Below are positions 3,293 through 39,271 of a stretch of DNA of 64,000 nt, one piece after another. Origin of the DNA: Minisyncoccota bacterium (GTDB taxonomy: Bacteria; Patescibacteriota; Minisyncoccia; Phycocordibacterales; PALSA-1337). Positions within the stretch are counted from its first letter, which is position 1; each line of letters starts with the position of its first letter. A program made the position numbers and the translations under genes. The notes below the pieces were generated by a model. The model saw nothing but the letters and a program-made list of their open reading frames with translations, was not told the DNA's origin and did no database searches. The DNA lies in NCBI GenBank assembly GCA_041665385.1, contig JBAYIX010000001.1:47865-111864 (forward strand), given 5' to 3'.

Positions 3293-5050
3293 TTACACCC
3301 CCATAAAAACCTCCACGACCCTCATCCTAAGCTCCGTCTTGCCACCAAACATAGATTTTTCTAGTGTTGATATGAGATCTATCTTACTCTTCGGCTGTAC
3401 TTCCCTAGCCCAATCGCTTGATGCCCCAAAAAAGGATATGGCCTTTAGCTTTTCCCCGCTTAGTTTCTGAAAAGTCAGTTCCACATGCTCCTTTGTCTTA
3501 CCAAATATTTTTAGAGATTCCACTGTAATATTTCGAAATAGGAAAACTGGTTTTTTATTGCCTGTGCCGAATGGCGCAAGTTTGGCAATATCGTTATAAA
3601 GATTCCAATTCACTGCATCGAGAGTTAGCTCTGCGTCTATCTCGTCACCATTTACGGCAGAAATTTCCGTTACGCCTGCAAGCGCAGCTTTTTCCATATT
3701 AGATAATGCCGCTTCATTTAGCCTTTGCTCGAGATAGTGCACAGCGTCATTTGCGACAGCGAAGCCCCCTGAATGTTTGTGTCCACCAAACTGTACGAAA
3801 ACCCCCTCGGGCACAGCACGCATGAGCTCTACCACATGAGTCCTGCCTTCCGAACGACAAGAACCCTTTATAGCATTGTCACCATCGCGCCCCCAAAGGA
3901 AAACAGGTCTGTCATATTCTTCGGCACAGGTGTTCGCCGCAAGACCTAGGAGTGCAGGTCTCCAACTAGGATTACCCAGGACTATCACACTCGGTATACT
4001 CTGACTCTCCTTCTGACTGCCATAGCGATCACGCAAAGTCTTCTTTATTTCCTTAACCAGAGCCGCGACTACCCCTTTCCTTTCGTTATTTATCTCATCC
4101 AAATGATCCGCCGCACTGCTCGCATCCGTATCATTGTCTGCTGTGAGCATACGAAATGCATCCATGGGCACACCCATTCGCGAAGCGGCATTGATGCGTG
4201 GTGTTATCATAAAAGCGATATCATCCTCCGTCACATACCTTTGTTGTATTCGCAATTTGGAAAGCATTTTTATCAAACCTTTCCTCGGACTCTTGCGCAG
4301 CACATCGAGACCATATCTGGCAAATACACGATTCTCCCCCACCAGAGGCACCATGTCTGACATTGTAGCCATACCGACCAGGTCCAGCATCCATTTTTCC
4401 ATACCTTCCTTCATACCCAGCCTGTCTTTTTTCAATATCGCCTGAATGAGTTTGAAACCGACACCAGTACCACAAAGATTTTTATCAGGATATAAGCAGT
4501 CTGCCTGTTTGTGATCTATGATGGCAAAAGCCGCCGGCAATATGAGCGGTGGCTCATGATGATCCGTGATTATTACGTCCACCTCCAGACTATTCGCATG
4601 CGCCACGGGACCCACGTCCGATATGCCGCAGTCGAGCGTAACCAAGAGCTTCACACCCCCTCTCGCAAGCTCAGTCACAGCGTCATCATTCAAACCAAAA
4701 CCTTCGTCATGACGATGTGGGATATATATAACAAAGTTTTTGTACCCTATACGAGCAAAAAATTCATGCCACATGGCCGCGCCGGGTATACCATCGGCAT
4801 CATAGTCGCTATATATCGCCACTTTTTCTTCATTTCGTATGGCTCCGAGTATCCTATCTGCCGCTTTTTCGGCATCCTTTAGGAGAAATGGGTCATGTAT
4901 ATCACGATCGTAATCCGGAGCGATAAATTTTCCCGCCTTTTCCGCATCATCAATACCCCTGTGATACAAAAGATGTGACAAAAGTGTAGAAAATGGCGCG
5001 AGTTGGAGCTGTTCTACCGTGCTCAGTTGTCGGCGTATAGCATACTTCAC
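3293..5050 (-). CDS. recJ: single-stranded-DNA-specific exonuclease RecJ
   Basis: DHH phosphoesterase motifs (DYDADGIPGAAMW, ITDHH), a DHHA1-like region and a C-terminal OB-like extension. Length 585 aa. Confidence 0.8.
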   Translation of the reverse strand: MKYAIRRQLSTVEQLQLAPFSTLLSHLLYHRGIDDAEKAGKFIAPDYDRDIHDPFLLKDAEKAADRILGAIRNEEKVAIYSDYDADGIPGAAMWHEFFARIGYKNFVIYIPHRHDEGFGLNDDAVTELARGGVKLLVTLDCGISDVGPVAHANSLEVDVIITDHHEPPLILPAAFAIIDHKQADCLYPDKNLCGTGVGFKLIQAILKKDRLGMKEGMEKWMLDLVGMATMSDMVPLVGENRVFARYGLDVLRKSPRKGLIKMLSKLRIQQRYVTEDDIAFMITPRINAASRMGVPMDAFRMLTADNDTDASSAADHLDEINNERKGVVAALVKEIKKTLRDRYGSQKESQSIPSVIVLGNPSWRPALLGLAANTCAEEYDRPVFLWGRDGDNAIKGSCRSEGRTHVVELMRAVPEGVFVQFGGHKHSGGFAVANDAVHYLEQRLNEAALSNMEKAALAGVTEISAVNGDEIDAELTLDAVNWNLYNDIAKLAPFGTGNKKPVFLFRNITVESLKIFGKTKEHVELTFQKLSGEKLKAISFFGASSDWAREVQPKSKIDLISTLEKSMFGGKTELRMRVVEVFMGV

Positions 5051-7369: not shown

Positions 7370-8884
7370 TTAGTTCACTTCCTGCCAAGACAACGGTATG
7401 TACGAACTAGATGAAAGCGGAAACGACGGCGGAGGACCATAGAGAAGATCCGGGTCATAGGTAACATCTCGTACACAGTAGCCACTGCCGATATTACCTA
7501 TAGCTCCACCACAATTGAAGTTTGAGCCAGTATAAGAAAATCCGTACCTGACGTATGTCGCTATCATTCCATAGAGAGTGAGGGAATTGCGTGTATATGT
7601 GCTGCCACAATCGGAATTGTAATAATACCTGCCTACCCTGCCCGTCTGAGCCACCAGGGCCGCATCTATTTCCAGATCTGTATCGCTATAAAGGCCGACT
7701 GTCACATTTCCTTGTGCTATAAGGCCGATAGAGTTACTACCATCTTGAGTCGCATAGCTCAGATCCGCATTTATTATGATATCCGGCGGTGTCGCAGGCT
7801 GAGGCAGTTTGGCCGCAGCGATGGTTACCCGGGCTCCATTCCCCACTCTGCCGTCCACCCAAACATTATCTGCCACAAATATTACTCCATTGGACGGGAG
7901 CTTATTACCTGTCGATATGGTTTGTTCGGGGTTGCCTGTATTACCAATACTCCAGCTTCCCCAGTTGGTCTGACTGGCATCATTGCCACATTGGTTCGGC
8001 ACACTGCGGAGGGACTTCACTTTTTTTAGGTCATAGGTAGTAGTGCCATTGTTATTGTAGAAGATAATATGATAACCGTAGTTTCCACTACCCGACGCGG
8101 CAATATTATATTTATTCGTAATAGGATCCGAAGCTATTGCAGCTACCTGAAGCTGGTTAAAATTTGCAGTAATACCGGAAAAACTCACTGCAGGATTCGA
8201 AAGTTGCCTCCCCGCCACAAAAACGTCCGGCCTATTTGGCAATACTGTAGGTGGATTTGGATCATTTGCACCAGACTCCGTAAATACTGCCCACCGGAGC
8301 GCACATGCAGGATAAGGTGAACATGACACATCGGGGTCAGTAGTCGTAGAAAGTGCACTCGCAACTACATTGTTCGCTATACCGTCGAAGTGAATACCCT
8401 GATTTGCATGTATTGGCCCATTTACGACCGTACCAGCACCAAAACGCATAAAATCATTTGCTACAAAAGCGTATTTTGCAAAAGAAGGAATAGCCAAGGT
8501 GGACAGGAGAGTTCTAGAAATACTACTGCTCGCAAGTGTGCCAACAGAGCGTATCTTTACCAAAGTAGAACCTATAGGCGGCGGGGTGATAGTCAGACTG
8601 TATGTCCCCAGAATATTTCCAGACTCGTCAGCAAAGTTGTGGACATATGGTCCAGGGTTTGTGGTCCCGTCTCTGAAATCAGATGGTGAATGCGCTAGGT
8701 GCCAACGATAATATTCTATACCTGCCTCCGCTATCTGCAGAGCCTGCTCTTTTTGCTGTAAGTTTTTCACCGAACGAAATATCTGAACACTCCAATTCAC
8801 TAAACCGGTCGTAATAACCACAGCTATGGTTGCAAATATGAGCACGTTTACCAAAACCATTCCTTTTGAAGGATTCTTACTCAT
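7370..8884 (-). CDS. pilus-associated protein with a non-canonical pilin-like N-terminus (hypothetical)
   Basis: Last gene of the pilB-pilC-pilin-pilin operon. N-terminus MSKNPSKGMVLVNVLIFATIAVV resembles a prepilin leader plus hydrophobic helix but lacks the conserved Glu5 (N instead). Large Gly/Ser/Thr/Asn-rich beta-type C-terminal region. Confidence 0.4.
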   Translation of the reverse strand: MSKNPSKGMVLVNVLIFATIAVVITTGLVNWSVQIFRSVKNLQQKEQALQIAEAGIEYYRWHLAHSPSDFRDGTTNPGPYVHNFADESGNILGTYSLTITPPPIGSTLVKIRSVGTLASSSISRTLLSTLAIPSFAKYAFVANDFMRFGAGTVVNGPIHANQGIHFDGIANNVVASALSTTTDPDVSCSPYPACALRWAVFTESGANDPNPPTVLPNRPDVFVAGRQLSNPAVSFSGITANFNQLQVAAIASDPITNKYNIAASGSGNYGYHIIFYNNNGTTTYDLKKVKSLRSVPNQCGNDASQTNWGSWSIGNTGNPEQTISTGNKLPSNGVIFVADNVWVDGRVGNGARVTIAAAKLPQPATPPDIIINADLSYATQDGSNSIGLIAQGNVTVGLYSDTDLEIDAALVAQTGRVGRYYYNSDCGSTYTRNSLTLYGMIATYVRYGFSYTGSNFNCGGAIGNIGSGYCVRDVTYDPDLLYGPPPSFPLSSSSYIPLSWQEVN

Positions 8885-14489: not shown

Positions 14490-15650
14490 ATGTTTGACTT
14501 AAAAGTAATCAATTCCGTCGTAGAACAACTCGAAGAAGAGCGCGGTATTCCCCGTGAAAAAACTCTCGAGGCTATTGCCATGTCTCTCGCTACGGCTTAC
14601 AAGAAAGAATTTGGCAAAAAAGGCCAGATAATAAGGGCTTCATTTGACGTGAACAGCGGCCAGGTAGAATTTTGGCAGGTAAAAGTCGTGGTAGACAGGG
14701 ACCAGGTCATCATGGAAGGAGACGAAGAGATGGCTCATGAGGAGATAAAGGATGCAAATGTCGACGATATCAAGATCCGTTTCAACCCGGAACAGCACAT
14801 GCTTTTCGAGGACGCTCAGAAGATAAAGAAGGATGCCGCCATCGGCGACGAGCTGGTATTCCCTCTAGAAGCAAAGGCAGACTTTGGACGCATAGCGGCA
14901 CAGACCGCAAAGCAGGTCATCATCCAAAAGATTCGCGAAGCAGAGAAAACTTCGGTTTTAGGTGAATTTGGCCAGAAGGAGGGCGAAATAGTAGCAGGGA
15001 CAGTAGAACGAGTAGAGAGAGGCGTAGTCTATATCAATATGGGCCGTGCTCTGGGCATGATCCCTTACGAAGAACAGATACCGAGTGAGCGCTGGAAAAC
15101 TGGCGACCGTATCCGTGCATACCTATATGCAGTAGAGGAGTCCCCTCGTGGCATCATGCTAAAGCTTTCCCGTGCTCATCCCAAGTTCCTGTCCAAACTC
15201 TTCGAGACCGAAACTCCGGAAATAGCGGCTGGAACTGTAGAGATCAAGGCCATCGCCCGCGAAGCGGGCTCACGCTCCAAGATCGCTGTCATATCTCACG
15301 ATCCTCATATCGACCCTATCGGTTCCATGGTCGGACAACGTGGGGTGCGTGTCTCGACGGTGACGAGCGAACTTTCTGGCGAAAAAATAGATATAGTAGA
15401 GTGGAATGAAGATCCTGCGCTGTTTATCGAGGAATCTCTCTCCCCTGCGGAAGTCGTCAGTCTGGAATTGATAGACGAAGAACATCGTGCAATTGTGACA
15501 GTGACAGAAGACGAACAATCCCTAGCTATCGGCAAGGGTGGTCAAAATGTCCGCCTCGCGGCCAAACTCACCGGCTGGAAGATAGATATAAAGTCTGCAG
15601 GAGGGAATGCGACTACAGGAGGTGATGAAGAAAAGGAGGCTACGAAATAA
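14490..15650 (+). CDS. nusA: transcription termination/antitermination factor NusA. Start at 14490; the ORF track extends upstream through the hairpin
   Basis: MFDLKVINSVVEQLEEERGIPREKTLEAIAMSLATAYKK, S1 domain and two KH domains (IGKGGQNVRLAAKLTGWKIDI). Confidence 0.9.
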   Translation: MFDLKVINSVVEQLEEERGIPREKTLEAIAMSLATAYKKEFGKKGQIIRASFDVNSGQVEFWQVKVVVDRDQVIMEGDEEMAHEEIKDANVDDIKIRFNPEQHMLFEDAQKIKKDAAIGDELVFPLEAKADFGRIAAQTAKQVIIQKIREAEKTSVLGEFGQKEGEIVAGTVERVERGVVYINMGRALGMIPYEEQIPSERWKTGDRIRAYLYAVEESPRGIMLKLSRAHPKFLSKLFETETPEIAAGTVEIKAIAREAGSRSKIAVISHDPHIDPIGSMVGQRGVRVSTVTSELSGEKIDIVEWNEDPALFIEESLSPAEVVSLELIDEEHRAIVTVTEDEQSLAIGKGGQNVRLAAKLTGWKIDIKSAGGNATTGGDEEKEATK

Positions 15651-15677
15651 GAACGAGTAAGGTTAGAAAGGCAAAAA

Positions 15678-15701
15678 AACCGCAGTAATAGCGGCTTTTT
15701 T
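15678..15701. terminator. weak bidirectional terminator between nusA (+) and the reverse transcriptase gene (-)
   Basis: aaaaaaaccgc-agtaata-gcggctttttt: a 4-bp GC stem flanked by an A-run and a T-run. Confidence 0.35.
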
Positions 15702-15708
15702 GTATGTT

Positions 15709-16719
15709 TTAATTTACTTTTGCTGATGCTTTTTCACGTAGAACTCTGAAACTTAACTTTCGGCAATTTCCATGACTCATTAGCCCTAGATACGAATTTG
15801 CCGACTTCTCTTTCCACTGATTCAAAATCAAATTCCTAAACATTCTTTTCTTGGTTGTTGTTCGCAGAACTCTGTGGTCCGGAAAATGCACCCACCCCAA
15901 AAAATCAACTCCTGAAGCAATCGTGGAAATAGAAACCTTATTTGGATGCATAGTAAGTCTCAACTTCTCTTCTAAAAAAGACTGCATCTTTGGCAAATGG
16001 CTTTCAAGATATGACCTGTTTTGCGACAACACGACAAAATCGTCAGCATAACGAATATAGTATTTTACTTTGAGCTTGTGCTTCACATATTGGTCAAACT
16101 CATTCATGTAGATATTCACGAGAAGTTGCGAGGTGAGGTTGCCGAGTGGGAGACCGACTCCTTTTGTACCAGAGTTGAAACTACTGACGATTTCAGAGAC
16201 GAGCCTCATAATGTCTCGGCCCGGGATATATTTGCCTATAATACTGAGTAGTATCGTCTGATCAATATTCGCAAAAAACTTTTTGATATCGCATTTGAGA
16301 ACCCATGTTGTACGAGTATTATTTTGCGAGACCGAACGAGAAAATTGCTCGAAACGCTTTAGTGCTCGATGTGTGCCCTTTCCGATCTGACATGAATGTG
16401 AATCCGATATAAATGTTTTTTTGAAAAATGGATAGAGAATGCGGTGTAAGGCATGGTTAACAAGCCTGTCTCGAACGCTCGCCTTATGAATATCCCGCGG
16501 CTTTGGGTCAGAAATCCTAAACGCCTGATATGCTGAATGCGAATATGTTTTTGTGGCAAGCTCGTGGTGAAGCAATATTATATTTGTCATCAAATCTCGC
16601 TCAAACCCTTGAACGTCTTTCCGCGCTCGCTTGTCGCACACAAATTCTTTCCATGCCAAAAGAAGATTTTCGAGAGAAATGATATCATTGTATGCATGTT
16701 GAAAAATAATTTTGGACAT
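15709..16719 (-). CDS. reverse transcriptase of a diversity-generating retroelement (DGR)
   Basis: RT motifs including YIRYADDFVVL (YxDD) and GLPLGNLTSQLLVNIYMNEFD. The [ILV]GxxxSQ motif, replacing the usual QGxxxSP, is the DGR-RT signature. Avd and a TR/VR pair lie adjacent. Confidence 0.88.
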   Translation of the reverse strand: MSKIIFQHAYNDIISLENLLLAWKEFVCDKRARKDVQGFERDLMTNIILLHHELATKTYSHSAYQAFRISDPKPRDIHKASVRDRLVNHALHRILYPFFKKTFISDSHSCQIGKGTHRALKRFEQFSRSVSQNNTRTTWVLKCDIKKFFANIDQTILLSIIGKYIPGRDIMRLVSEIVSSFNSGTKGVGLPLGNLTSQLLVNIYMNEFDQYVKHKLKVKYYIRYADDFVVLSQNRSYLESHLPKMQSFLEEKLRLTMHPNKVSISTIASGVDFLGWVHFPDHRVLRTTTKKRMFRNLILNQWKEKSANSYLGLMSHGNCRKLSFRVLREKASAKVN

Positions 16720-17136
16720 AAAGATAGCGTCAGTCAGTCAGTCAGTCAGTCAGTCAGTCAGTCAGTCAGTCAGTCAGTCAAGATTTTACCTGTTCTAAAT
16801 AAGGTAAAGAGTGCTTATCTGACATGGTACAGATTTTATCAAGATCTCCCGAAGACACATAGACATTCTATAGGACAGCGTATCGATACTTTGTTTGTTG
16901 AGCTGATAGAAGCGATATCGGCGGCAAGTTTCTTATCACGTGAGGAGAAACATCCGTATGTCAGACTAGCAATCAAAAAGCTCGATACCCTACGCGTACT
17001 TCTCATGATCCTTTGGGAAATAAAATCTTTTGATGACAAGAAATATATTACCCTTTCTGTAATGATTGATGAGGCTGGAAAAATGCTTGGTGGATGGAAC
17101 GGTCAGCTTACAAAACAAAACTCTCCCAAGAAATAG
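16696..17136 (+). CDS. avd: DGR accessory variability determinant (Avd-like four-helix-bundle protein). Start at ATG 16696 reading through the (GTCA)n tract is an inference
   Basis: The region after the repeat (PKTHRHSIGQRIDTLFVELIEAISAAS...LAIKKLDTLRVLLMILWEIKSFDDKKYITLSVMIDEAGKMLGGWNGQL) parallels Bordetella phage bAvd (PRKHGVAREMFLKCLLGQVELF...QVETAQVLIAEVGRILGSWIARV). There is no in-frame ATG between the repeat and this domain; the nearest upstream ATG is 16696, overlapping the RT start by 24 nt. Confidence 0.7.
   Translation: MLKNNFGHKDSVSQSVSQSVSQSVSQSVKILPVLNKVKSAYLTWYRFYQDLPKTHRHSIGQRIDTLFVELIEAISAASFLSREEKHPYVRLAIKKLDTLRVLLMILWEIKSFDDKKYITLSVMIDEAGKMLGGWNGQLTKQNSPKK
16729..16780. 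repeat. perfect tetranucleotide microsatellite (GTCA)x13
   Basis: gtcagtca... repeated 13 times without interruption. Lies 10-60 nt upstream of the RT start (minus strand) and inside the 5' end of the avd reading frame (plus strand), where it translates as (VSQS)n. Confidence 0.95.
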
Positions 17137-17154
17137 GGAGAGAAATGAAGTGAG

Positions 17155-17255
17155 TTGCGAACACCAGCGAACCACCAGTTGTCGTTCCAGTCGTTGTCGT
17201 TGCGGTTGACGTTCACCTTGCGCTTGTCGTTCCAACGGTTGAACGTGGCGTAGCA
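17155..17255 (-). repeat. DGR template repeat (TR)
   Basis: Non-coding; matches the 3' end of the downstream minus-strand target gene. All mismatches fall at minus-strand adenines of this copy (plus-strand T), e.g. ttg/cgg, tcg/ccg, ttc/agc. Blocks of 24, 18 and 18 nt are identical. Confidence 0.85.
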
Positions 17256-17642
17256 TTGTATGGAGTCTCGTCTATTTCACTGCCCCTCGAATACTCTCAG
17301 AGCTGTATCGAATCCGGCATCTCATTCAGCAGAATGACCTACTGGGTTTATGCCTTAAAACTCCATACCAAGTAGCTTCATTTTTTTGAAGTGTCTGCAT
17401 GCACCACCCTATCCAAAGCCTCATTTAGCAAAATGACCACTGGGTTGACCGTGGATACTCTCGATGCATGGATACTGGTTTCGGTAGCGGGAAGCCGTAA
17501 CCGCCCGCATATTCACCTACTGCCGGAATAAGTATAACTGGTTTTATATAAAAAAATTAGCCCCACATCCAAAATTAATTGAATGCAGGGCTAAGGACCA
17601 AGTTTCTAAGGACCGGAGTCCAAAGCGACTTAGTGTTGAGAA

Positions 17643-18275
17643 CTACTTGCGAACACCAGCGAACCACCAGCGGCCGAGCCAGCCGCCGCCCCAGCCGTCG
17701 CCGTTGCGGTTGACGTTCACCAGGCGCCCGCCGTCCCAACGGTTGAACGTGGCGAAGCACCAGTTGCCTTTGGCATCTTTCCAATGAGTGCCGTGGGGCT
17801 TCTCATCGGCGAAGGCGGGATCGGCTTCATTCACGGCGGCGACAGAGATCGGATCGACGGGCTTGAGACCACGCAGTTCGAACTCTTTTTCGAGGTCGTC
17901 ATCGGAGATGAAACCATTGCGGTTCGAGAGGTCGGGTTTGAAGAACACAACCTCGACTTCGTCGCCTTCACCTTTCGGCATCGCATCCACGACCTTGCGG
18001 TCCGTGTACTGCGCGCGGCCGGTGGCCTCGATCGCCTCTTGCGGAAAGCGACTACGATTCACCTTGATGGTGCGGACGATGAGGTTCGAGACCGCTTCAG
18101 CGCGTTCGCAGAAGGGCGTAAACATCATCATTCCGAGATTCTCGACGCCGAGAACCTGTTGAGCGACGTCCGAGGTGATCGAGGAGCGATGCTTGCGCAT
18201 CGCGTCGCGGAGTTTGTTGACGGCATTTTCGATTTGGCCGTCGGTCATTTCGGCTGCAGTCATGATCTGTGTCAT
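17643..18275 (-). CDS. DGR variable (target) protein with a C-terminal variable region, probably C-type lectin / FGE-like fold
   Basis: 210 aa. C-terminus ...HGTHWKDAKGNWCFATFNRWDGGRLVNVNRNGDGWGGGWLGRWWFAGVRK is encoded by the VR. GC content is visibly higher than surrounding genes. No obvious signal peptide. Confidence 0.75.
   Translation of the reverse strand: MTQIMTAAEMTDGQIENAVNKLRDAMRKHRSSITSDVAQQVLGVENLGMMMFTPFCERAEAVSNLIVRTIKVNRSRFPQEAIEATGRAQYTDRKVVDAMPKGEGDEVEVVFFKPDLSNRNGFISDDDLEKEFELRGLKPVDPISVAAVNEADPAFADEKPHGTHWKDAKGNWCFATFNRWDGGRLVNVNRNGDGWGGGWLGRWWFAGVRK
17647..17759 (-). repeat. DGR variable repeat (VR) at the 3' end of the target gene
   Basis: Direct repeat of the TR with substitutions only at TR adenines. 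It is 12 nt longer than the TR, with a (ccg/cag) expansion. It ends 1 nt from the target stop codon. The 24-nt identical 3' block ttgcgaacaccagcgaaccaccag is an IMH-like GC-rich segment. Confidence 0.85.
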
Positions 18276-18496
18276 GGTGTCATCCTTTCTTTTTGATTTC
18301 GACTTATATGTAAGAACTGTTCACAATAATTATACTCCTATTATCACCCATTGTCAATAGCTCCCGGTCCTGCCAAAATACCCCTATATTAAGCCCCAAT
18401 CATTGCATATTTGGCCCTTTTTTATTAGAATGCGCACATTGACAATTATTAGAAGGAAGACTAAAAGCCTCCCAAAAAGGGAGTAATAATACCAAA

Positions 18497-20518
18497 ATGA
18501 GCCCTTATATATGGTTCGCACTTATAAGTTCCGTAATCGCTATAGCATACGGCGCTTTTTTGATCACATCGATCTTGAAGAAGCCCACAGGCAATGACCG
18601 CATGAGAGAGATAGCCGCCGCCATCCAGGCAGGCGCAAAGGCGTATCTCAATCGCCAATATCGAACCATCGCCGTCATAGCAGTCATCCTATTCCTAATA
18701 CTCGGCTTTTTCCTAGGCTGGTCCATAGGCATAGGGTTCCTGGTAGGTGCTATCCTCTCTGCGCTTACAGGTTATATCGGTATGAATATATCGGTACGAA
18801 CAAACATAAGGACAGCCGAAGCAGCGAGGAGTGGCTTGGCTGAAGCTCTCTCTCTGGCATTCAAAGGCGGATCTGTGACCGGATTCTTCGTAGTTGGCTT
18901 GGCTCTCCTCGGAGTCACAGGCTTTTATGCCATCACAAAAGATGTAAACTCTCTCATCGGTTTGGCATTCGGAGCGAGTCTTATATCGATATTCGCCCGC
19001 CTAGGCGGAGGCATATTCACAAAGGCCGCTGATGTCGGCACCGATCTCGTAGGCAAATTAGAAGCAGGCATACCTGAAGATGATCCCAGAAACCCTGGTG
19101 TTATCGCAGACAACGTAGGCGACAATGTAGGAGACTGTGCTGGCATGGCAGCAGACTTGTTCGAGACCTATGCCGTCACCACCATAGCAGCCATGATACT
19201 CGGCGCGGTCACCTTCACACAGACTCTCGACGTTTCTGGTGTTGCAGTCAACGCAGTATTTGCAAATGCAACCATTTATCCTCTCGCTATAGGAGGTGTC
19301 GCCATCATCGCTTCTATCATAGGTACCTGGTTCGTAAAGCTCGGAAAAAGTGGAAACATAATGGGTGCAATGTACAAAGGACTCATAGCGGCTGGTGTCA
19401 TTTCTGCCATCGCTTTCTACCCCCTCACCATGGAACTCATGGCTGACAACAAACTCTACGATCCTACGAACTTGTACTACGCAACACTCGTCGGACTTCT
19501 CGTGACCGCAGCATTGGTATATATAACTGAATACTACACCTCCACCAAGTATCACCCAGTGCAATCCATAGCAAACGCGAGCGTTTCTGGTCACGGTACG
19601 AACATCATTCAGGGTCTGGCAATATCCATGAAAGCTACAGCATGGCCTACTCTGAGCATCGTTGCTGGAATATTGGCTGCATATCACTTCGGCGGACTCT
19701 ACGGTATAGCTATAGCCGCTATGAGTATGCTCTCTATGGCAGGTATCATAGTCGCTATCGACTCTTACGGTCCTATCACTGACAATGCCGGAGGCATAGC
19801 AGAGATGGCAGAACTACCAAAGGAGGTCCGTGATGTCACTGACCCATTGGATGCAGTCGGTAATACCACAAAAGCGGTCACAAAAGGATATGCCATCGGT
19901 TCCGCAGGGTTGGCGGCTCTGGTACTCTTTGCTTCCTATACAGAAGCAGTCGGTTCCGGGCACAGCTTTAGCCTCAATGATCCCGAAGTTATCGTCGGAT
20001 TGTTCATCGGAGGACTATTGCCTTACTATTTCGCAGCTCTCTGCATGGAAGCCGTAGGAAAAGCGGCTGGAAAAGTAGTAGAAGAAGTCAGGAGACAGTT
20101 CCGCGAGATCAAAGGCATCATGGATGGCTCTGCAAAGCCAGACTACAGCCGTGCGGTAGATATCGTGACTTCTGCAGCTATCAAGGAAATGATAGTTCCT
20201 GCTCTCATACCGGTTCTAGCACCTATATTGGTCGGATTTATACTCGGCCCAGTCGCTCTCGGAGGTTTGCTCGTCGGTTCCATTGTGACAGGCCTATTCG
20301 TAGCACTTTCTATGACTTCCGGAGGAGGAGCATGGGATAATGCAAAGAAACACATAGAGCAAGGTGCTCATGGAGGCAAGGGTTCGGATGCTCACAAAGC
20401 CGCTGTTACTGGCGACACCGTTGGAGATCCTTACAAAGACACAGCTGGCCCAGCCATAAACCCTATGATCAAGATCTTGAACATTGTGGCCCTGCTCATC
20501 GTCGCTTTCATTATTTAA
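18497..20518 (+). CDS. hppA: membrane-bound proton/sodium-translocating pyrophosphatase
   Basis: 673 aa polytopic membrane protein with [39 protein letters not shown] and [17 protein letters not shown] signature motifs. Confidence 0.9.
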
Positions 20519-35653: not shown

Positions 35654-37264
35654 ATGGACGAGAGTGAACAAAAAAAAGAAAGTGAGGAAAGGGTATATGA
35701 GTTTACCTCAGACCTGAATATTTCCGCAGTCAAAAATACGGATCCGGATGCAGAATCCTTGCCTGTACCGGAAGTACCGATCCCTACGCTAAAAAGTGAA
35801 ATAAAAAAAGAAGTACCAAAACCAGAATATCCAGAAAAAATCGGCGTACCGCAATATGGTAATAGCATAGATGTCCGAAAAGAGGCCCCGACATCTGTTC
35901 CTGAGCAGAAAATATCTCCGCCGGCACATGTGTCTATCACAACACCCAAAGAAGAACCTGTCGCCAAGCGAGAACCAGACAAAGAAAAAGCCATTCGAAC
36001 CCTCGAAGGCGACATTGCCGAATACATGGCGAAAAACAATATTTCTACCGCCACGATGGTAATTGCGGAAAAAGAAAAGAAGGACAAAAAAACCCCACCA
36101 GTGCCTGTAAAACCTGAACCCACAAAACCTGCAGAACCCGAGCCTGAAGACACCACCGTAGATATACCACCCATACCGGAGCAAACCAAACTCAGCGAAA
36201 AACTAAATAAGTTTCGAGAAGAAGAAGCACAGGAACTTGTGGACATAAACAAGGACTCTTTGAACATAGCCGATCTGCAACACGAACAGAGAGTAAAACC
36301 TATTCCAAAACCAGAATCAATCCCGACACCTGTACCTGAGCCTAAAGAGGTACCAGTACCTGTACCCGTACCCGAACCAATACCTAAACCCGAACCAGTG
36401 CCTGAACCTGAACACGTTGAACTGGGACACTTCCAGGCGGCAGATTCTACATGGCAGACGAAAAACACAGACCAGCCAACTGAGAAGGCCATGCCTTCGG
36501 CAATAGAATACACACAGTCGAATCTAGATGAAATGGAGTTACCCAAACAGTCCGGCAAGAAAATCTTTTTTGTCCTATTGAGCATGATATTTGTGTTGGG
36601 TGGAATAATAGTCGCCTACTATCTATATAGTATAAGCGCCTTGGCTGTGAAGGTTCCCGTAAACCTGGAGACTGAACTTGGTACTCCCATCATATCCGTA
36701 GATTCGCGAGCAACCCTGGATGTGAACGGTCTTTCCAATACGGAAATTATTTCGGCCTTGAGACAAGCAGTAAACGTCGGCAGTACACCGAATACTATTC
36801 AGGATATCGTATTAACAGAAAAGATTGCTGACACCCCGACACGTCTAACATCTACAGATATACTGAGAAAGCTGTCCATAACCGTGCCAGATACTCTAGC
36901 CCGATCTTTATCTGGACCCTGGATGGTAGGAACATACACAGATCAGAATGGTGCAAAAGATGTATTTGTGATAGCCAAGCACAGCTTCTTTCAAAATGCA
37001 TTTTCTGGAATGATCTCCTGGGAAAAAACTATGATCAATGACCTCAAAGATTATCTTTTCCAATCACAAGAAGACGTCACTACGCACGGACAGTTCGTAG
37101 ACGGTATAGTGGGGAACAAGGACGTCCGCGCATATATTTCTGAAAAAGGCTCTCTCGTGATCTTGTACTCACTTATTGATAATGAAAAAATCGTATTCGC
37201 TACAAAAGAGAGTACAATAAAAGAAATTATTCAAAGACTTGAAAGACAGGCCTATATAAGATAA
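35654..37264 (+). CDS. membrane-anchored protein with proline/glutamate-rich PEP/PVP repeat N-terminal region (hypothetical)
   Basis: N-terminal 290 aa are low complexity (PVPEPKEVPVPVPVPEPIPKPEPVPEPE), followed by one transmembrane helix (KIFFVLLSMIFVLGGIIVAYYLY) and a 230-aa C-terminal domain. Confidence 0.5.
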   Translation: MDESEQKKESEERVYEFTSDLNISAVKNTDPDAESLPVPEVPIPTLKSEIKKEVPKPEYPEKIGVPQYGNSIDVRKEAPTSVPEQKISPPAHVSITTPKEEPVAKREPDKEKAIRTLEGDIAEYMAKNNISTATMVIAEKEKKDKKTPPVPVKPEPTKPAEPEPEDTTVDIPPIPEQTKLSEKLNKFREEEAQELVDINKDSLNIADLQHEQRVKPIPKPESIPTPVPEPKEVPVPVPVPEPIPKPEPVPEPEHVELGHFQAADSTWQTKNTDQPTEKAMPSAIEYTQSNLDEMELPKQSGKKIFFVLLSMIFVLGGIIVAYYLYSISALAVKVPVNLETELGTPIISVDSRATLDVNGLSNTEIISALRQAVNVGSTPNTIQDIVLTEKIADTPTRLTSTDILRKLSITVPDTLARSLSGPWMVGTYTDQNGAKDVFVIAKHSFFQNAFSGMISWEKTMINDLKDYLFQSQEDVTTHGQFVDGIVGNKDVRAYISEKGSLVILYSLIDNEKIVFATKESTIKEIIQRLERQAYIR

Positions 37265-39177: not shown

Positions 39178-39271
39178 GAGGGAATAGTATCAATACAAAA
39201 TGAAATTCCAATGAATATTCAGTAAAGAAACGATAAAATTCAGATCAAAAAACGATAAAAAGGGAAATGTA

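Follow-up and report, generated by a model that had tools for sequence, protein, structure and literature searches.

We analyzed a window of 64 kb (64,000 nt of contig JBAYIX010000001.1) from a Paceibacterota genome of the candidate phyla radiation (CPR). The window carries a diversity-generating retroelement (DGR) composed of a reverse transcriptase (RT) gene, the accessory gene avd, a template repeat (TR), and a target gene that ends in a variable repeat (VR). A preliminary description of the window had proposed a complete, adenine-mutagenic DGR, and Pfam searches and alignment found each of its components in place (Table 1). The RT open reading frame scored against Pfam RVT_1 with E = 3e-25, and its translation contains the GNLTSQ motif that had been claimed, in the form LGNLTSQ (the DGR-type (I/L)GxxxSQ), together with YADD, the YxDD active site. 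A DGR-specific RT model is absent from Pfam and NCBIfam; the top NCBIfam match of the RT was a group II intron RT, below the cut-off. RT homologues numbered more than 8000 at E ≤ 1e-30 among the matches listed. The proposed likeness of the accessory protein to bAvd also held: residues 43–135 of the avd product matched Pfam bAvd with 44.0 bits, above the cut-off of 40, and residues 31–134 matched positions 1–102 of NCBIfam DivGenRetAVD with E = 2e-18 and 66.5 bits, under the 80-bit cut-off of that model.

The gapped alignment of TR and VR contains one 12-nt gap and 15 mismatches. As had been claimed, the mismatches fall exclusively on TR adenines, at 15 of the 28 adenines and at 0 of the 73 other positions; the chance of all 15 doing so is about (28/101)^15 = 4e-9. 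The longest identical blocks are 24, 20, and 19 nt, rather than the 24, 18, and 18 nt first reported. The VR covers the last 37 codons of the target and ends 1 nt from its stop codon, also as described before, and this 3′ end of the target encodes a C-type-lectin-like domain, a kind of fold that, like the immunoglobulin fold, tolerates variation. In related populations with identical RTs (the P0176, P0183, and P0148 groups), the VR varied between samples and the TR was constant or nearly so. The 64-kb window contained no further TR/VR pair or TR-like sequence, and neither an additional target nor a remote VR was found in it.

The 12 nt by which the VR exceeds the TR repeat the TR unit AACGACAACTGG once more, and the two VR copies, GGCGGCGGCTGG and CTCGGCCGCTGG, deviate from this unit at its A positions only. 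Because the TR has the same length as the TRs of 16 relatives, and because the target-family protein usually has 206 aa and that of the window 210, we conclude that the VR gained 12 nt (four codons) and that the TR lost none; the same two observations ruled out a TR deletion in place of a VR insertion. Both AACGACAACTGG copies in the VR are independently A-mutated, so a slip-back of the RT by 12 nt is the simplest reading. The expansion reported in the preliminary description is real, but it is not unusual: TR/VR length differences, mostly multiples of 3 and beside AAC repeats, occur in ~7% of DGRs and have been ascribed to RT slippage (Wu et al. 2018, NAR 46:11, PMC5758913). We also observed length changes inside single populations, a 2-nt deletion in the TR (L158) and a 3-nt indel in the VR (L161/L163). 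Changes in TR and VR length seem to be frequent in this clade.

The TR, avd on the opposite strand, and the RT gene follow one another with the target upstream, and the host is a CPR genome. This order is architecture B3, TR-(avd on the reverse strand)-RT, which accounts for 90% of CPR DGRs according to Wu et al. (PMC5758913). Hence the inversion of avd between TR and RT, which the preliminary description had called unusual, is correct as to layout but is the published arrangement of the group. The target indeed has no signal peptide, but this too is typical of CPR targets (Roux et al. 2021, PMC8144416). The B3 layout was present in all 17 related genomes with avd and RT nearby (18 with the window). 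It was also present in the loci of a metagenome scan with an RT alignment, which gave 80 further loci with RTs 56–74% identical and with mostly unrelated targets.

Table 1. Features of the DGR locus, in window coordinates
Feature	Position	Strand	Basis or remark
RT, DGR reverse transcriptase, 336 aa	15709–16719	−	Pfam RVT_1; LGNLTSQ and YADD
avd, 146-aa full frame	16696–17136	+	Pfam bAvd, NCBIfam DivGenRetAVD
(GTCA)13, perfect tetranucleotide repeat, candidate phase-variation switch	16729–16780		within avd frame
Terminator-like 3′ end of TR RNA: hairpin CTCTCCC-N8-GGGAGAG, then TTTTGTTTTG	17111–17142	−	
TR, 101 nt, 28 adenines	17155–17255	−	TR/VR alignment
Structured RNA leader directly 5′ of TR	17256–17524	−	RNAalifold, covariance model R1
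Candidate −10 box TATACT of the TR-RNA unit	17531–17536	−	alignment read by eye, inferred
Terminator-like hairpin and T-run after target	17557–17594	−	hairpin at same position in relatives' alignment
Target (variable protein), 210 aa, no signal peptide, C-terminal C-type-lectin-like domain	17643–18275	−	
VR, 113 nt, final 37–38 target codons	17647–17759	−	15 mismatches to TR, all at TR adenines
Promoter-like site of target, TTGACA-17-TATAAT	18329–18357	−	12/12 consensus match, consensus only

Two outstanding features of the locus had been overlooked in the preliminary description, a (GTCA)13 repeat in avd and a structured RNA leader. No other short-unit tandem repeat occurs in the window; two further arrays, at 36358–36413 (18-nt unit, 3.1 copies) and 39217–39260 (22-nt unit, 2 copies), are unrelated to the DGR. 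The (GTCA)13 tract separates an ATG at 16696 from the Avd domain and stands 9 nt ahead of the RT start codon. The product read from this ATG has a 30-aa N-terminal extension (MLKNNFGHKD, 17 repeat-encoded residues, and K) ahead of the Avd four-helix domain, and the NCBIfam Avd profile starts at residue 31, right after the repeat-encoded residues. Thirteen GTCA units put avd in frame, and gain or loss of one unit (4 nt) breaks the frame.

The ATG at 16696 is the only in-frame ATG of the window's avd; no start codon is found past the repeat. It is antisense to the His8 codon of the RT, and if translation of avd starts there, avd and RT would overlap head-to-head by 24 nt. Past the repeat, an in-frame ATG ahead of the Avd domain was present in only 2 of 79 loci, and the consensus sequence of 48 lacks any in-frame canonical avd start. 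All 79 have an upstream ATG with a frame open through the tract; when positions opposite the body of the RT were taken as controls, the figure was 55%. The His codon opposite the avd ATG is conserved near the RT N-terminus in the motif xHxY(D/E)xIIS. It is CAT in a ratio of 57:1, compared with 664:486 (58% CAT) at the other His codons of the same RTs (p = 6e-13), and in 56 of 57 loci the frame that begins at its antisense ATG runs through the tract without a stop. Fixation of CAT at this position looks like a dual-coding constraint that keeps the avd start. A second conserved antisense ATG, opposite RT Ile-Ile codons, was considered as the avd start and rejected, its frame usually closing before the tract. 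We also noted a perfect DnaA-box-like 9-mer, TTATCCACA in avd sense, between the poly-C tract and the Avd domain of L035 (~7430–7450) and L053 (~490–510), which may be a chance occurrence.

The tract also lies close to the RT gene, in the very short divergent region from which avd and RT would both be controlled, and its length could act on transcription or translation initiation of RT, avd, or both, through promoter spacing or the 5′ untranslated region, rather than on the avd frame. In Haemophilus influenzae, a (TA)n tract between the divergent hifA and hifB promoters tunes promoter spacing. The distances would suit such an effect, since the tract ends 9 nt before the RT ATG in the window and 9–25 nt before it in relatives, and for 25 of 79 RT genes the tract is not followed by an in-frame ATG. 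G-runs could in addition pair with the anti-Shine-Dalgarno sequence. At many loci a TAAAAT-like hexamer stands directly ahead of the tract in RT sense, but the codons for a conserved Ile-Leu-Pro in avd account for this motif as well. The fixed CAT codon, which preserves the antisense ATG, the open frame that leads from this ATG through the tract, and the near absence of downstream avd ATGs all argue against initiation as the explanation, as do the repeat-free loci described below, which are all in frame from the antisense ATG. We therefore consider it unlikely that the repeat acts in this way instead of on the avd frame; the two effects are not mutually exclusive.

A simple-sequence repeat occupies the same spot in ~90 related loci. 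All 18 related genome loci with this layout (window included) have a repeat at the junction, and those of the relatives are (CTGG)10 or more, (GT)9, or G8–G11. The 74 metagenome windows with enough sequence to be counted at the junction gave 66 repeats (G7–G14, GT, GA, AG, or CTGG). Outside the junctions, the same loci contained two G/C homopolymers and one tetranucleotide repeat in 354 kb, so the junction is enriched roughly several hundred-fold over the rest. The repeat unit turns over among relatives (G7–14, GT, GA, AG, CTGG, TGAC), its position is held across RTs merely 54–77% identical, and the strand bias is strict, with the tract G-rich on the RT strand in every case. That the position is fixed while the unit type changes suggests that repetitiveness as such is under selection.

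These properties speak against a functionless repeat, that is, a by-product of a short AT/GC-skewed divergent region, or a mark of decaying elements, in an otherwise plain CPR DGR. A lack of function would fit those populations in which the tract is fixed and the many avd genes that are out of frame, and cassette loss does occur, as 35 of the 57 species with a target homologue have no RT or avd near it. However, the RT open reading frames are intact, the adenine bias between TR and VR is kept, the VR differs between samples, and repeat-free loci are in frame. We regard a repeat without function as highly improbable.

We compared the reading frames of loci with and without a repeat. Of 56 repeat-bearing loci, only 8 have the Avd domain in frame with the His-antisense ATG; the frame is off by +1 in 30 and by +2 in 18. 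At repeat-free loci the domain was in frame in 4 of 4 independent cases (L074/L076, L131, L132, and the P0148 group), with products of 134–141 aa. The difference is significant in a conservative Fisher test (p = 0.001), although the loci are phylogenetically related and the p-values given here overstate their independence. Polymorphism was assessed in contigs of different samples that encode an identical RT protein, and tract length was polymorphic among such contigs in three populations. In the P0189 group, 2.7 kb of sequence are identical except for the G tract: the G9 allele encodes a 141-aa Avd, and the G10 allele is frameshifted after 15 codons and yields a 40-codon product. In the P0176 group, the in-frame length, G10, falls between the two alleles, G9 and G11, and the VR differs at 23 columns between samples. 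The P0183 group has alleles (GT)6 and (GT)7, and its VR likewise differs between samples, including a 3-nt indel. Public gene calls at L058–L067, L156–L159, and L166–L169 are inconsistent, with avd missing, truncated (62–123 aa), or full (141 aa) according to tract length, and public RT calls at these loci have internal starts (287 aa) or extend through the tract (345–365 aa).

Apart from the relatedness of the loci, several observations weigh against a heritable switch in avd. No tract variation was seen in two clonal populations of 6–10 assemblies (P0009, G10, and P0171, G9). In P0009, where the contigs share an identical target protein, all ten were G10 and identical over 2.6 kb; a look-up by identical target protein is biased toward frozen VRs. 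At about a dozen loci, an in-frame ATG, GTG, or TTG follows the repeat and could act as a repeat-independent start. The P0183 group is a case in point, since its sequence has an in-frame GTG just past the tract, which would also fit an effect on initiation. Because the repeat also precedes the RT start by 9–25 nt, and no downstream ATG exists for 25 of 79 RTs, an effect on RT expression is inseparable from one on avd. The tract length of the window comes from one assembly. Assemblies tend to break at the tract (there is an N-gap in L001, and L003 ends there), and a Logan contig with the window's RT (SRR6484324) starts inside the repeat and is uninformative as to tract length; no other contig with this RT was found. 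Finally, 48 of 56 consensus states are out of frame, an excess that could reflect transcriptional or ribosomal slippage or decaying copies rather than a heritable switch.

In the slippage explanation, RNA polymerase or the ribosome would slip without heritable change (e.g., by +1 on CCC-C) and supply a small, roughly constant fraction of Avd from a gene that is nominally out of frame, a throttle on the mutagenic complex rather than a switch. Homopolymers of at least 9 are known sites of transcriptional slippage. An in-frame share below the neutral one-third (p = 0.001) would agree with this, as would the differences in the VR between samples of the P0176 and P0183 groups, where all consensus alleles are out of frame. 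However, the polymorphism is seen at the DNA level, including an in-frame and out-of-frame pair as the sole difference in 2.7 kb, and tracts with units of 2 or 4 nt, (GTCA)13 among them, are classic substrates for DNA slippage but lend themselves poorly to slippage of RNA by single bases. The window itself is in frame and would need no slippage. We think it quite unlikely that slippage of this kind accounts for the tract. We instead favor, with a probability of roughly 0.68, the reading that the locus is a complete, chromosomal, CPR-type DGR with B3 layout in a Paceibacterota genome and that its avd is phase-variable via the tract. On our best reading of the sequence, the avd of the window is in frame and ON, and the frame statistics are best interpreted as most repeat-bearing populations sitting in OFF states.

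The second overlooked feature lies in the interval of ~390 nt between the target stop codon and the TR, which is noncoding yet conserved. The leader found there is 269 nt long in the window, compared with ~220 nt in relatives. A leader alignment of 14 loci (MAFFT/RNAalifold) gave 59 pairs, 34 with compensatory changes, and from it we built a covariance model, R1. R1 matched the window once (17255–17524, 230.6 bits) and matched 59 of the 80 metagenome loci, in each case on the same strand as the RT and upstream of avd, irrespective of the target. In the alignment of all 60 matches (33–233 bits), 95.7% of cells were paired, compared with 37–51% in slid controls, and 54 of 59 pairs had changed on both sides; since this alignment is fitted to R1, these pair counts are somewhat inflated, and the independent MAFFT/RNAalifold result already supports the structure. 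The covariation score over the 60 matches was 0.649, compared with 0.10–0.15 in the slid controls. A search of positions 15000–19000 of the window with all 4227 families of Rfam 15 gave no match at E ≤ 1. The leader is thus a structured RNA family new to Rfam and is supported by covariation.

Hairpin insertions account for the additional 49 nt of the window's leader. Two hairpin modules of 26–29 nt, with the core GGTCATTYTGCTRAATGAG, sit in its apical loops (17321–17349 and 17420–17445, minus strand). L024 also carries GGTCATTYTGCTRAATGAG modules, at 4184–4202 and 4335–4353, partly at different loops. Neither the remainder of the window nor any of the other 182 loci contains the 19-nt core. 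A genome-wide mobile element was ruled out for this hairpin, which is confined to the leader of the window and L024.

The sequences that flank the leader and TR suggest the limits of a transcript. When we inspected 17 aligned loci by eye, a TGnTAnAAT-like box was located 7–9 nt upstream of the conserved leader start GG(C/T)AGTAGG, and a conserved GGCAGTAGG stands near the predicted 5′ end of the TR RNA. A strict sigma-70 promoter scan did not call a TR-RNA promoter. Right after the TR, a 7–10-bp hairpin and a U-tract (UUUUGUUUU tail) were present in 16 of 16 loci, with an inner stem that varies in sequence; the window's copy overlaps the avd stop codon on the opposite strand. From the −10-like box upstream and the hairpin and U-run downstream, we infer a discrete TR RNA of ~415 nt that would consist of leader, TR, linker, and terminator, the leader and TR being transcribed as one RNA. 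This RNA most likely ends before avd, given the hairpin and U-tract at every locus. The preliminary description had raised the point that a TR-RT transcript would be antisense to avd; the same hairpin and U-run disfavor such a co-transcript, and the point is probably moot.

The target gene differs in composition from the rest of the locus. Its GC content is 59.6% and its GC content at third codon positions (GC3) is 0.75, compared with GC3 of ~0.5 in neighboring housekeeping genes and 0.36–0.42 in RT and avd. The preliminary description had noted this and had suggested horizontal acquisition. We found a target homologue in 57 Patescibacteria species genomes, and in nearly all of them the target has a GC content of 0.53–0.66, irrespective of that of the flanks (0.35–0.57). 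High GC is therefore a property of the family and not a mark of recent entry into this genome, and a recent horizontal gain by this genome alone was ruled out. In contrast, exchange within the family is supported by sequence identities. Between the window and L058, the target coding sequences share 91% nucleotide identity and 0.81 identity at synonymous third positions, whereas avd and RT share 58–59% protein identity and their synonymous sites are saturated (0.32–0.43). More broadly, the target coding sequence of the window is 86–97% identical in nucleotides to those of L058, L010, L004, and L068, whereas avd and RT are just 55–65% identical, and identity drops steeply at the target gene borders. 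These comparisons show the cassette to be a mosaic and support horizontal exchange of the target module between cassettes within the family.

The promoter-like site of the target lies 54 nt upstream of its ATG. A perfect 12/12 sigma-70 consensus ahead of a GC-rich target is unusual for a low-GC CPR genome, and it suggests that the variable protein is strongly and constitutively expressed. In 35 of the 57 species, among them L002, L005, L007, L008, L011–L014, and L016–L023, the target homologue (up to 88% identity) has no avd, RT, or TR within 6 kb. These cassette-less homologues still vary exactly at the VR positions; a remote cassette may diversify them in trans, or they may represent frozen remnants. 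L010 has two tandem target paralogues (116–742 and 1153–1716, with 80% and 54% identity to the window protein) upstream of a single TR-avd-RT set, and it may be a two-target DGR. At the other end of the locus, nusA and RT converge on a hairpin bordered on each side by an A/T run (15675–15705; aaaaaaaccgc-agtaat-agcggctttttt), which looks like a bidirectional terminator serving both genes.

We propose that the locus comprises four transcription units: the target, with its consensus promoter and own terminator; the TR RNA; avd, which would be convergent with the TR RNA; and the RT gene, divergent from avd. By analogy with Bordetella, RT and Avd would bind the TR RNA and copy the TR into cDNA with random bases opposite adenines, and the cDNA would replace the VR, which encodes the lectin-like C-terminal tip of the target. 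The four extra codons of the VR may stem from the last homing event, in which the RT would have slipped back by one 12-nt AACGACAACTGG unit. Translation of avd would begin at the ATG at 16696, on the strand opposite the 5′ coding region of the RT, and the ribosome would have to read through (GTCA)13 to reach the Avd domain. Slipped-strand mispairing could add or remove a unit and so shift the frame, which would turn Avd, and hence adenine mutagenesis, ON or OFF heritably and reversibly, with 13 units representing ON. With slightly better than even confidence, we extend this proposal to the large CPR DGR clade as a whole, in which hypermutation would be phase-variable and mostly OFF, with rare ON states by slippage, an antisense avd start, and a 5′ leader that replaces the 3′ spacer of Bordetella.

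A heritable, reversible frameshift switch in avd, if correct, would bear on the regulation of DGRs in nature and would be a mechanism by which hosts keep a good variant once it has been found: bursts of diversification would alternate with fixation of useful ones, in one of the largest DGR clades (>8000 RT homologues among the matches listed). The position of the leader 5′ of the TR would, if it acts in the RNA, imply that the complex of RT, Avd, and RNA is assembled differently from that of Bordetella. There are also practical consequences. At these loci, gene callers frequently overlook avd or cut it short and place the RT start wrongly, and assemblies also tend to break at the tract; pipelines for finding DGRs that depend on an intact avd will therefore count too few CPR DGRs or annotate them wrongly. 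The leader itself is a compact RNA defined by covariation, and its covariance model is a new means of locating TRs.

As a DGR, the locus is a new member of a well-described group. Published CPR DGRs (B3; clade 2 of Roux et al. 2021, PMC8144416) share with the window the gene order, a Patescibacteria host, A-to-N mismatches, a target without signal peptide or recognized domain, and in-frame VR indels beside AAC, and as DGRs we see no difference between them and the window. The tract proposed as a switch, the antisense avd start, and the leader are lineage-wide, and they appear to be properties of the whole CPR group rather than of the window alone. They go unmentioned in the searchable portions of Wu et al. 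(2018) and Roux et al. (2021). We did not find them in the accessible literature, which did not cover Paul et al. (2017), and an earlier description is possible.

The DGR of Bordetella phage BPP-1 (mtd-avd-TR-brt), the prototype for the mechanism (Handa et al. 2018, PMC6182149; Naorem et al. 2017, PMC5703328), resembles that of the window in having RT and Avd, a TR of ~100 nt, and adenine-specific mutagenesis. Its VR is likewise located at the C-terminal end of a protein with a C-type-lectin fold, and the 3′ end of VR and TR is GC-rich and conserved. In BPP-1, however, avd is co-oriented and upstream of the TR, whereas in the window it is inverted between TR and RT. The functional RNA structure of BPP-1 (the spacer) trails the TR, and the Bordetella paradigm has a structured region of ~200 nt there (review, PMC8867640); in the window, the structure leads the TR and ~45 nt of linker, hairpin, and U-run trail it. 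The avd of BPP-1 has no repeat tract, whereas that of the window carries (GTCA)13. BPP-1 is phage-borne and diversifies a tail fiber, whereas the element of the window is chromosomal and its target is probably cytoplasmic or of unplaced location. The leader can also be compared with the RT-1 to RT-19 motifs of Rfam, which are structured RNAs beside bacterial RT genes (Weinberg et al. 2017, PMC5737381). Like these, it is a conserved structured RNA beside an RT gene and possibly part of the retroelement. It differs in being physically fused to the template repeat of a DGR and, given the Rfam search without a match, is not detectably one of the RT-1 to RT-19 motifs.

The tract itself most resembles the contingency loci of other bacteria, such as (AGTC)n in mod and (CAAT)n in lic1 of Haemophilus influenzae and poly-G in Neisseria and Campylobacter. 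As in those loci, a perfect short-unit repeat stands in the 5′ coding region with the usual numbers of units (G8–G14, or 9–13 tetranucleotides), and its length polymorphism toggles the frame between otherwise identical genomes; (GTCA)n of the window is a rotation of the (AGTC)n of mod. Contingency loci are known in host-adapted bacteria, whereas the bacteria described here are free-living or episymbiotic groundwater CPR. The gene carrying the tract here does not belong to a surface antigen or a restriction-modification system but encodes an accessory factor of a targeted hypermutation machine. Control of Avd by the tract would thus place a stochastic switch on top of a diversity generator.

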